Origin: Candidatus Woesebacteria bacterium GW2011_GWF1_31_35
GTDB lineage: Bacteria > Patescibacteriota > Microgenomatia > UBA8517
Reading direction: 5' to 3'
Length of the DNA stretch: 64,000 nucleotides
NCBI GenBank assembly: GCA_001029755.1
Contig: CP011214.1
Span: forward strand, 557,767-621,766
In this document: in pieces, positions 8,888 through 11,800 of the stretch
Position numbering within the stretch: position 1 is the stretch's first letter
Layout: each line of letters starts with the position of its first letter
The notes under the pieces: generated by a model
The model's database searches: none
Seen by the model: only the letters and a program-made list of their open reading frames with translations
Told to the model about the DNA's origin: nothing
Translations under genes and position numbers: made by a program

Positions 8888-11800
8888 CTAAACATCAAGT
8901 GTTGCAAGTTTAGCATGAGTTTGAATAAATTTCTTTCTTGGTGGGACTTCTTCACCCATTAACATTTCAAACATTTTTCCAGTTTCTTCATGGCTTTCAA
9001 TTGTTATTTGTTTTAGGGTTCTGGTTTCAGGATCCATTGTGGTTTCCCAAAGTTGGGTTGGATTCATTTCTCCAAGACCTTTATAACGAGAAATTGAGAA
9101 TTTTTTATCCTTGACCACATCTTTCATTATTTTATCTTTTTCTTCATCATTAAAAGCATATTGGAACTGTTTTCCTGTTGTTATTTTGTATAGTGGAGGT
9201 TGTGCAATATAAAGATATCCCCTATTAATTATATCTGGCATATGACGATAAAAAAATGTTAATAGTAGGGTTTTAATGTGTTCACCATCAACATCGGCAT
9301 CAGTCATGATGATAACCCTGTGGTATCTAACTTTATCGTAGTTTAAGCTTTCTCCAATTCCAGCACCTAGGGCAATTATTAAATCTTTAATTTCTTCAAA
9401 TTTAACAATTTTGTCTAAATGTGCTCTTTCGGTGTTCAAAATTTTTCCTCCTAAAGGCAAGATTGCTTGGAATTTTCGGTCTCTTCCCATCTTTGCACTA
9501 TTATGTACAAAAATTCCACTAGACAATGCAAAGTTGTGGGTATTTTCGACTTCTAAATCATATACATCAATTTTACTTTTCAAATGGGTTATCTTTTTAA
9601 TCCTGTGATTAAAATTGATAACTGCCGATTTAAGATTTTTTTCATTGTTGTCGAAAAATCTTGAAAGTAATGTTTGATATTTCATCAATAACTTATCATT
9701 TGTAGCTTCTCTTCTTTCCTGATATTTAGCTATATCGATCATCCCATGATCTTTATAAATTTGATTTAAAGTCTTTAACCCTTTTGTCAAATAAGTTTTG
9801 TTATAAGCTTCTTTTCTCTTATTTCTAAATTCATCAGTCCATTGTTCCTTCGTTTTAGCCCTCCTCCATACTAATAGATTTTCATCTGTCCATTGATTTT
9901 TAGATTTAAGACTAAGTAATTCTTTATGTTTAGGGTGTGTGTTAAAAAATCTAGTTACTTTTTCTGATTGTTTAGATCTATTAATTGGATTAGACCAATA
10001 TTCTTTTTGGGCTTTGTTTAATTTTTTGTTGTTTTCTTTTCTGTATTTCTCATTTGTATTATAAAATTCAATGAACTTTTTTGTCATATATTTTTTGTAA
10101 ACTTCATTTTGCCACTGTTTCTTTGCTCTAAGACTTAGTAATTTTCGCATCTCAGGTTGAAGCATTGTTTTACTTATTTTATCTCTATATTCTTTTGTTT
10201 TCCTTAACTTTGCTAATTTTTCCAAAACATCTTTTCGCTGAAGTGTTCTATATGCATGTTCTGAGTGATATCTTAAATGTTCTTCTTTTGACAACCTAAT
10301 TAAATTATTTGGATTATTATTTTTTTTATTAAAATCAATATGGTGTCTGTGCGTTTCGTTTCCAATTTTATATATTTTGTTTTTCAAATTATAGTTATCA
10401 GAGAGAACATGAGTGAATAACCATCTCAATTCTTTTGGATCATAATACATTTCATAATCTTTAATAGTAATTCTTTGACCAAGTTTAGATAGTTGTCTTC
10501 TTAAAGGCATTAAGGAATCAGTTGATTTTAAATTAATCGCTCTTTTGTACTTACCATCTCGAAGCATAAATAAATGATCTGGAGTACAGACAATTTTTTC
10601 ATTATTATCAAGTATTATCTTAATAACATTGCTGTTTTTTTTGGTTAATCTAGGATTTTTAATTTTTGCTATTTCTATTGATCCGGTATTAGAAATTGTA
10701 TAGCAATAGTTGTCTTTACCATTATTATATTCCTCAACAAGTTTTTTAAAAGTAATGTCTTTTCCATCTACTAAAGCAACATTGGTATTACCAGAAAAGC
10801 ATCCACCAGCTGAATCTCCCTCAACTATATACAGTTCAGAAACTTCTGCATCTCTACTTTGACAATCTGCAAGTTTACCAGGAAGAGATGCACCGTCTAG
10901 TGCTCCTTTTCGTAAAACTGCATCTTTTGCAGCTCTTGCTGCTAGTCTTGCTTTAGCGGCTAAACTTACTTTTTCAATAATTCTTTTAGCATCCTGTGGG
11001 TGTTCTTCAAAGTAAGTGTCTAATCCCTCTTTAACACAAACTGCAACATAACCCTGCACCTCTGGGTTATTAAGTTTTGCTTTTGTTTGAGATTCAAATT
11101 GTAATGATTCAGAAGGCATTTTAATATAAACCACAGCTGTTAAACCTTCCTTTAAGTCATCTCCAGTTAAAATTACATCGTCTTTTCCATTTTTTCCATT
11201 TGTTTGTTTTTTAACATATTCTGTTATTGAACGAGTAAGTGAAGTTCTAAAACCAGTAACATGTGTTCCACCGTCTGTAGTGTAAATCCCATTAACAAAT
11301 CCTTTGACGTTTTCATTAAATCCGTCAGTGTATTGAATAGCTACTTCACAATTTATGTTTCCATCGTCTTTGTTCATATAAATTGCATCAGAAAGAGTAT
11401 TTTTACCTCTATTTGAATGAGTTACTAAAGATTTAATTCCACCTTCAAAATAATAACTTGCTTCATCATTATCTCTGTAGTCTTTAAAATTAAATCCAAG
11501 TTTTGCGACTAAATAGGCCCTATCTTTTAGAAGAGCTTTGATTTTATTTTTTTCAAAAGCAATATCTCCAAAAATTGCTTTATCCGGAATAAATGTTGTA
11601 ATTGTTCCGGATTTAGAATCTTTTAATTTTAACCCCCAATCCTCAATTTGTTTTGGATTTGCTAAACCTACTGGTTTTACCGGTACTCCTTTTTTGTATT
11701 CTTGATAATAAATTTTTCCATCTCTTAAGACTACTACTCTAAAGTATAGAGAAAGTGCGTTAACAACCGATGCACCAACACCATGAAGTCCTCCGGAAAC

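Follow-up and report, generated by a model that had tools for sequence, protein, structure and literature searches.

An interrupted gyrB gene in a Woesebacteria genome

The gene for DNA gyrase subunit B (gyrB) of Candidatus Woesebacteria bacterium GW2011_GWF1_31_35 was analyzed within a stretch of 64,000 nt (CP011214.1, positions 557,767-621,766), which is termed the window in the following. Its open reading frame (ORF) matched the NCBIfam DNA gyrase subunit B model PRK05644 with an E value of 9e-253 and contained the Pfam domains HATPase_c, DNA_gyraseB, Toprim, and DNA_gyraseB_C. The frame is interrupted by an insert with the features of an intein. The locus is organized as follows (window coordinates; residues 1-434 refer to intein numbering):

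8888..12130, minus strand: gyrB precursor ORF composed of N-extein, intein, and C-extein (1080 aa plus stop)
10802..12130, minus strand: N-extein, GyrB residues 1-443
9500..10801, minus strand: intein, Cys444 to Asn877 (434 aa, 1302 bp)
10487..10801, minus strand: N-terminal splicing region, intein 1-105, with block A Cys1 and block B T73-P-D-H76
9611..10486, minus strand: predicted homing-endonuclease domain, intein 106-397 (predicted local distance difference test score, pLDDT, of the domain model 92)
10247..10459, minus strand: predicted HNH / beta-beta-alpha-Me nuclease core, intein 115-185
9611..10246, minus strand: basic all-helical region, intein 186-397, the presumed DNA-binding part of the endonuclease
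9500..9610, minus strand: C-terminal splicing region, intein 398-434, with blocks F and G and H433-N434
9497..9499, minus strand: Ser+1 codon AGT (Ser878), first C-extein residue and predicted transesterification nucleophile
8888..9499, minus strand: C-extein, residues 878-1080 plus stop, with the remaining part of Toprim and the GyrB C-terminal domain

The GDSAGG sequence of the Toprim motif starts at residue 438 and is followed by Cys444, and the insert ends with GIFVHN877, followed by Ser878. Removal of residues 444-877 gave a 646-aa GyrB that aligned gap-free through the junction with E. coli GyrB (7z9c_B, E = 2e-185); in E. coli numbering the insertion site is G430|S431, six residues past the Toprim Glu424. 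Immediately past the insert, the Pfam Toprim match picks up at profile position 13 (residues 878-977), followed by DNA_gyraseB_C (residues 1009-1070). These alignments reproduced exactly what had been proposed in the original prediction, an earlier annotation of the same DNA made without database searches, for the ORF, the borders of the 434-aa insert, the collinear 646-aa GyrB, and the insertion within the Toprim motif EGDSAGG|S. The predicted ligated-extein sequence at the splice junction is EGDSAGGSAKMGR, and the empty-junction DNA derived from the window (AGT form) is GTTGAGGGAGATTCAGCTGGTGGA^AGTGCAAAGATGGGAAGAGACCGA. A database entry with the identical 1080-aa sequence (P0121) bears the name 'hypothetical protein A2422_01035 [Candidatus Woesebacteria bacterium RIFOXYC1_FULL_31_51]'. 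The record covers 31 contigs that come from several sources and reach 826 kb, and the interrupted gene is thus no assembly artefact.

The splicing domain

The insert matched the Pfam family Intein_splicing (PF14890; E = 1.2e-22, 80.8 bits, cut-off 35.8), TIGR01445 for the N-terminal splicing region (intein 1-79; 41 bits, cut-off 24.5), and TIGR01443 for the C-terminal one (intein 412-434; 32.3 bits, cut-off 15.6). A chance resemblance can be dismissed because the Pfam and TIGRFAM intein scores exceed the cut-offs. An AlphaFold2 model of the intein, built on 40 homologues (mean pLDDT 88), contained a beta-rich domain made up of residues 1-129 and 400-433, in which the predicted beta strands of the N-terminal splicing region had pLDDT values above 90. 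In Foldseek searches, this domain matched the solved inteins NrdJ-1, Npu/Ssp DnaE, Ssp DnaB, Mtu RecA, and PI-PfuI with E values of 6e-7 to 1e-4 (matched structures include 8ubs, 4kl5, 1zd7, and 1mi8).

All canonical splicing residues listed in the original prediction (Cys1, TPDH, HN, and Ser+1) were present and conserved across the 40 homologues. T73, H76, H433, and N434 were invariant in the alignment, and C1 and Ser+1 were at least 90% conserved; the two residues on whose conservation the earlier assignment had been made to depend, Cys1 and Asn434, are among them. The junction pattern VEG[DE]SA[GA]G|C...VHN|S was found in 35 of 35 homologues with a complete N junction, cyanobacterial and halophile-like ones among them. 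The corresponding genomic loci were analyzed for the best 80 of at least 592 confirmed loci (L001-L080), 77 of which were parsed, alongside a set of empty loci (L081-L161). Cys1 was present in 75 of the 77 parsed loci, the other two showing one Ser1 and one apparent Ala1 (pattern match). Ser instead of Cys is also found at position 1 of the intein in homologue P0001 (SAGG|SFSGETQV), and the +1 codon was TGT (Cys) in two genome loci in one parse (pattern match only).

With Cys1, TPDH, His-Asn, and Ser+1 in place, the insert can be regarded, with near certainty for an assignment from sequence, as a full-length class-1 intein. According to the mechanism proposed, gyrB would be translated as a 1080-aa precursor in which intein residues 1-105 and 398-434 would form the Hint fold. 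Splicing would proceed in four steps, comprising an N-S acyl shift at Cys1, transesterification to Ser+1, His433-aided cyclization of Asn434, and an O-N shift. This would release the 434-aa intein and leave a 646-aa GyrB in which the EGDSAGGS Toprim motif is whole. The window copy is expected to splice efficiently, and gyrase activity would then depend on protein splicing.

The central HNH endonuclease domain

The central 290 residues would be composed of an HNH core followed by an extended array of basic helices, the presumed DNA-reading part. The HNH motif spans intein residues 151-179 (H-R-H153-H154-I-D-F-N-K-K-N-N162-N-P-N-N166-L...H175...H179), of which H153, H154, N162, N166, H175, and H179 were invariant in alignment A2 and at least 90% conserved in alignment A1. 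In the AlphaFold2 model, this segment is folded into strands 151-154 and 167-170 and a helix from 172 to 185 (pLDDT about 88-92). Three PHROG 'HNH endonuclease' families matched residues 116-231 (E = 7.5e-7, 4.1e-6, and 1.5e-4), and the Pfam family HNH_3 (PF13392) matched 7 of 10 homologues (best E = 3e-4). A separate model of the endonuclease (residues 108-398, pLDDT 92) was compared with BFVD by Foldseek. One match, a Hint-domain protein from a phage, extended over 301 columns (E = 2.5e-5), and dozens of phage HNH homing endonucleases matched with probabilities of 0.97-1.0 and root mean square deviations of 3-4 Å.

No LAGLIDADG profile was found at E values up to 1 for the window intein or up to 10 for 10 homologues. 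A LAGLIDADG endonuclease was ruled out, given the missing profile match and a predicted core of beta-beta-alpha plus helices. The assignment of the central domain as HNH and not LAGLIDADG, put forward in the original prediction, is hence supported by the PHROG matches, the conserved His and Asn residues, the strand-strand-helix arrangement, the Foldseek matches in BFVD, the profile searches, and the correspondence to group 22 of the His-Me finger nucleases (see below).

The helical region (residues 186-397) is basic, is predicted to form about eleven helices, and contains internal repeats whose last residue is Trp, Tyr, or Phe. Its invariant residues are W230, Y268, W269, W304, F325, R326, and R329. 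We infer that this region is the DNA-binding part of the endonuclease. The DNA-binding modules NUMOD1, NUMOD3, and NUMOD4 were considered for it and rejected, as no Pfam match was obtained in 10 homologues; no NUMOD family was detected in any of them at E values up to 10, in a search where HMMER filters may mask very weak matches. The endonuclease domain had 443 relatives among 1.84 billion representative proteins.

The combination of HNH core and helical module was also observed in P0246 (1608 aa), P0317 (1313 aa), and P0291/P0303/P0335. It is shared by a GyrB with two inteins, one HNH intein of the window type and one LAGLIDADG intein further along Toprim, and it occurs in a GyrA intein and in multi-intein T4-like portal proteins. 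The Trp-punctuated helical array of approximately 210 residues, for which no significant fold match was obtained in the PDB, may represent an undescribed DNA-recognition module that the window intein shares with phage portal and GyrA inteins.

Taken together, the element is best described as a bifunctional class-1 intein in gyrB with a Hint splicing domain and an HNH homing endonuclease, an assignment to which we give a probability of roughly 0.93.

Intein-free relatives and the natural empty site

A search with the spliced exteins yielded, next to P0121, relatives with 96%, 92%, 92%, and 91% identity that were 643-646 aa long and had no intein. The original prediction had suggested aligning the exteins with an intein-free GyrB and had proposed the intein as a strain-level marker. 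Both points were borne out: the natural 96%-identical relative of 646 aa (P0122; 87% DNA identity) has a scarless gyrB junction, and the nearest GyrB relatives (92-96% identical) are devoid of the intein. The P0122 gene was located as follows:

L081, 6001-7941: intein-free gyrB encoding P0122, on a 20-kb Logan contig (SRR22388049)

The gene order on this contig is that of the window (holB-like, gyrB, ppa, RNase-H-like, malic enzyme ... gyrA), and its gyrB is a natural empty homing site for the window intein.

Inteins were present in 4 of the 120 best extein relatives, namely the window's own, two full-length inteins of 434 aa, and one mini-intein of 144 aa. In the two full-length cases, the identity to the window was 61% for the intein versus 82% for the exteins. 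The mini-intein is found in P0180 (785 aa, Woesebacteria-like, 84% extein identity) at the same site with the endonuclease deleted, and it is a decay stage of the homing cycle. Such a form without endonuclease among close relatives fits, because the homing cycle predicts it.

Distribution of the intein family

A scan with one genome per GTDB species gave the at least 592 confirmed loci mentioned above. The hosts comprise Patescibacteria (Candidate Phyla Radiation, CPR), Woesearchaeota, Nanoarchaeota, Micrarchaeota, Thermoplasmatales, and Methanosarcinales; among these loci, the species with the intein mostly belong to CPR and DPANN. At least 452 proteins were matched in a protein search with the intein, which added cyanobacteria, Chloroflexota, Omnitrophota, and others as hosts. 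Listed matches were mostly partial and no longer than 760 aa, and the intein-containing proteins P0121 (self-identical), P0199, and P0204 were missed, so that the counts from the protein search are lower bounds. The intein homologues could be aligned with all 434 aa at 41-61% identity (E values as low as 6e-170), and many are already named 'intein-containing DNA gyrase subunit B' at NCBI. GDSAGG or GESAGG preceded the intein in 70 of the 77 parsed loci.

An allelic HNH intein with 51% identity was present in a 1073-aa GyrB on a 99-kb contig of viral class (IMG/VR UViG_3300033145_001746):

L162, 1693-4914: viral-contig gyrB, junction FIVEGSSAGG|C...VHN|S

This contig may stem from a phage vector for cross-domain spread or may be a misclassified cellular contig. 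Its gyrB adjoins a gene for a protein with KYDYSKVxYxN repeats.

Relation to known GyrB inteins

GyrB inteins with an HNH endonuclease at EGDSAGG|S have been known since the 1990s and have found use in protein engineering. The N-terminal 105 residues of what we take to be the Ssp GyrB mini-intein were 60% identical, without gaps, to the window intein. When this N-terminal sequence was used as query, the matches were 9 fragments of GyrB inteins with 58-79% identity, none of them a named Synechocystis protein. An HNH intein was the subject of a 1997 paper by Dalgaard et al. (NAR 25:4626, as cited in PMC3359363), the title of which does not give the host protein; it is said to be the Synechocystis GyrB intein.

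In Synechocystis sp. PCC 6803, the GyrB intein is naturally contiguous, contains a putative endonuclease domain, and splices in E. coli (PMC3620165). Its C-terminal junction is GVFVHN|S (PMC2794532). The split inteins S1 and S11 were engineered from it. The window intein resides in the same host protein and has the closely similar C junction GIFVHN|S. It differs in that its host belongs to CPR and not to the cyanobacteria and in an estimated overall identity of approximately 45-60%. In cyanobacterial homologues, among them Planktothrix P0037, both the EGDSAGG|C junction and the entire 434-aa architecture recur at 46-47% identity.

Group 22 of the His-Me finger nucleases (PF13392) is named 'Gyrase subunit B intein / dCTP deaminase intein' in the survey of Jablonska et al. 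2017, where it has 84 bacterial and 7 archaeal sequences (PMC5714182). The window intein shares with this group a predicted HNH_3-type (PF13392) nuclease core inside a GyrB intein, whereas the family, compared with the 84 + 7 sequences surveyed, is now seen in at least 592 GTDB species. Novikova et al. 2016 counted 33 bacterial GyrB inteins. Soucy et al. 2014 (PMC4071816) described a single gyrB allele in 6 Halobacteria, 19 Bacteria, and 1 other Euryarchaeote. Sharing across domains is likewise seen here, with the very acidic homologues P0058 and P0072 having the same junction; in contrast to that list, the family includes a Woesebacteria member, abundant DPANN archaea, and a viral contig. The window intein is a further CPR-borne member of this already described gyrB allele. 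With free-standing I-HmuI-like HNH endonucleases of phages, it has the beta-beta-alpha-Me core in common (70-100 aligned columns, 20-32% identity); unlike the phage HNH homing endonucleases, its endonuclease is embedded in an intein and has a long helical array with no recognisable NUMOD or helix-turn-helix modules.

Selection on the endonuclease and a probable codon footprint of homing

The intein was 431-435 aa long in 73 of the 77 parsed loci, and none of the 77 contained a stop codon. Ratios of nonsynonymous to synonymous substitution rates (dN/dS) were determined by the Nei-Gojobori method for the closest independent pairs. The HNH and helical regions gave values of 0.03-0.27, similar to the 0.06-0.19 of the splicing domain; all are rough because dS was saturated (0.9 or more). 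The endonuclease domain is under purifying selection.

The Ser+1 codon was of the AGY type in 74 of 77 occupied alleles (96%; bacteria and archaea) versus 26 of 78 empty alleles (33%; Woesebacteria-like metagenome contigs), with a nominal Fisher p of 9e-18 in a test that sets broad against narrow taxa and ignores phylogenetic non-independence. The Ser of GDSAGG, four codons upstream, served as control and did not differ between occupied and empty alleles (p = 0.29). In the window the +1 codon is AGT versus TCG in the 96%-identical empty relative. Since splicing is blind to the codon family, the link between AGY and occupancy is a signal at the DNA level. The signal suggests that the neighboring codon is co-converted during homing, that the endonuclease has preferred targets, or that both apply. 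Cleavage of intein-free gyrB by the endonuclease would be predicted to fall at or close to the GGNGG|AGY junction, and repair from an occupied allele would copy in the intein along with the extein codon next to it. Mismatches to the empty allele were slightly denser within 25 nt on both sides, which is unconvincing as a sign of a co-conversion tract extending past the +1 codon. Other flank positions that differed between the occupied and empty sets followed the amino acid differences of the taxon sets.

The GC content was 0.27 for the intein versus 0.33-0.35 for the exteins, and that of third codon positions (GC3) was 0.21 versus 0.14-0.23. As the GC3 of the intein is not distinct, composition gives no sign of recent import. 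A promoter and terminator scan of positions 8300-12900 revealed fewer promoter-like sites than shuffled sequence did and nothing to suggest that the endonuclease has a transcript of its own.

Weighing of alternative explanations

Several observations weigh against the proposed bifunctional intein with an HNH homing endonuclease, beyond the dS saturation and the uneven taxon sets given with the values above. The Pfam HNH_3 match in the window copy stayed below the gathering score (15.5 versus 24.8 bits, E = 0.014). The endonuclease model had no significant Foldseek match in the PDB (best E = 3.1), the weak best matches being I-PpoI and the type I-F Cascade HNH domain (E about 3). In the literature found, there was no cleavage experiment with the endonuclease of any GyrB intein.

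The strongest alternative is a splicing intein with an HNH endonuclease that is a defunct relic or has taken on another role, and with vertical inheritance only in this lineage. The sub-threshold HNH_3 score of the window copy speaks for it, as do the papers found, which document no cleavage activity for the family, and the nearest intein relatives, which at 61-64% identity make no very recent transfer visible. On the other hand, the catalytic His and Asn residues show little or no variation, the dN/dS of the endonuclease is as low as that of the splicing domain, and the length of 431-435 aa was maintained in 73 of 77 loci with zero stop codons. The intein is also sporadic among close relatives, with an empty site at 96% extein identity, its occupancy is tied to the AGY codon, and in the nearest intein-bearing relatives its identity (61%) falls far below that of the exteins (82%). 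We consider a relic unlikely, and from its sequence the window endonuclease is likely to be currently active.

The wider proposal that the GyrB intein is still spreading by HNH-driven homing in CPR, DPANN, and phages, combined with the helical array being an undescribed DNA-recognition module, is put forward tentatively, with its chances still clearly short of even.

Very improbable, in comparison, is a lineage-specific GyrB insertion that does not splice and is kept in the mature protein. Against it stand the match of Hint profiles and fold, the presence and conservation of every splice-junction residue, and the absence of the element from 96%-identical orthologues; moreover, a retained insert would break the catalytic Toprim motif, and the homologous Synechocystis intein was demonstrated to splice experimentally (PMC3620165). 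An assembly or binning chimera, with the insert not truly in the gyrB of this genome, has next to no probability even for a metagenome-assembled CPR genome, given the identical 1080-aa protein on 31 contigs of several sources (up to 826 kb), the continuous reading frame, and an intein GC3 inside the extein range.

Surroundings of gyrB in the window

Further features of the window are listed below:

3437..6058, minus strand: gyrA, 873 aa, with DNA_topoisoIV and six GyrA_C blades, without intein
12597-22725, plus strand: type IV pilus / type II secretion system (T2SS)-like cluster with a PilB/GspE-like ATPase, further ORFs, and a run of 150-230-aa ORFs
34158-35549, plus strand: radical SAM/SPASM protein, 463 aa

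The gyrA gene lies approximately 3 kb from gyrB, and its Pfam catalytic-domain match is in two stretches. The syntenic pilus cluster of L081 contains two T2SSE genes, T2SSF, and an A24 prepilin peptidase. In the window, the ORF at 12597 begins with TTG, shares approximately 180 nt with the holB-like gene, and codes for 649 aa versus 578 aa in L081; because of this overlap and excess length, its true start is probably further downstream. Five tRNA genes are located at 51134-52109 and 60724-62680, and no rRNA was found within the window.

Implications

The deposited name 'hypothetical protein' should give way to 'intein-containing DNA gyrase subunit B', and for gyrB-based phylogenies of CPR bacteria and for gene callers the 1302-bp insert has to be taken out. 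Beyond its uses for naming, as a marker, and for gene flow, the window intein adds no new biology; mild novelty is confined to the codon footprint and to the uncharacterised helical array presumed to bind DNA. If the intein spreads by homing, either the +1 codon is co-converted or the endonuclease prefers AG at positions +1/+2. TCN alleles, as in the 96%-identical relative, would then be resistant sites, and empty sites with AGY would be targets or scars of precise intein loss. The presence or absence of the intein tells apart very close Woesebacteria lineages, and the family as a whole may lend itself to tracing gene flow among CPR bacteria, DPANN archaea, and their viruses.

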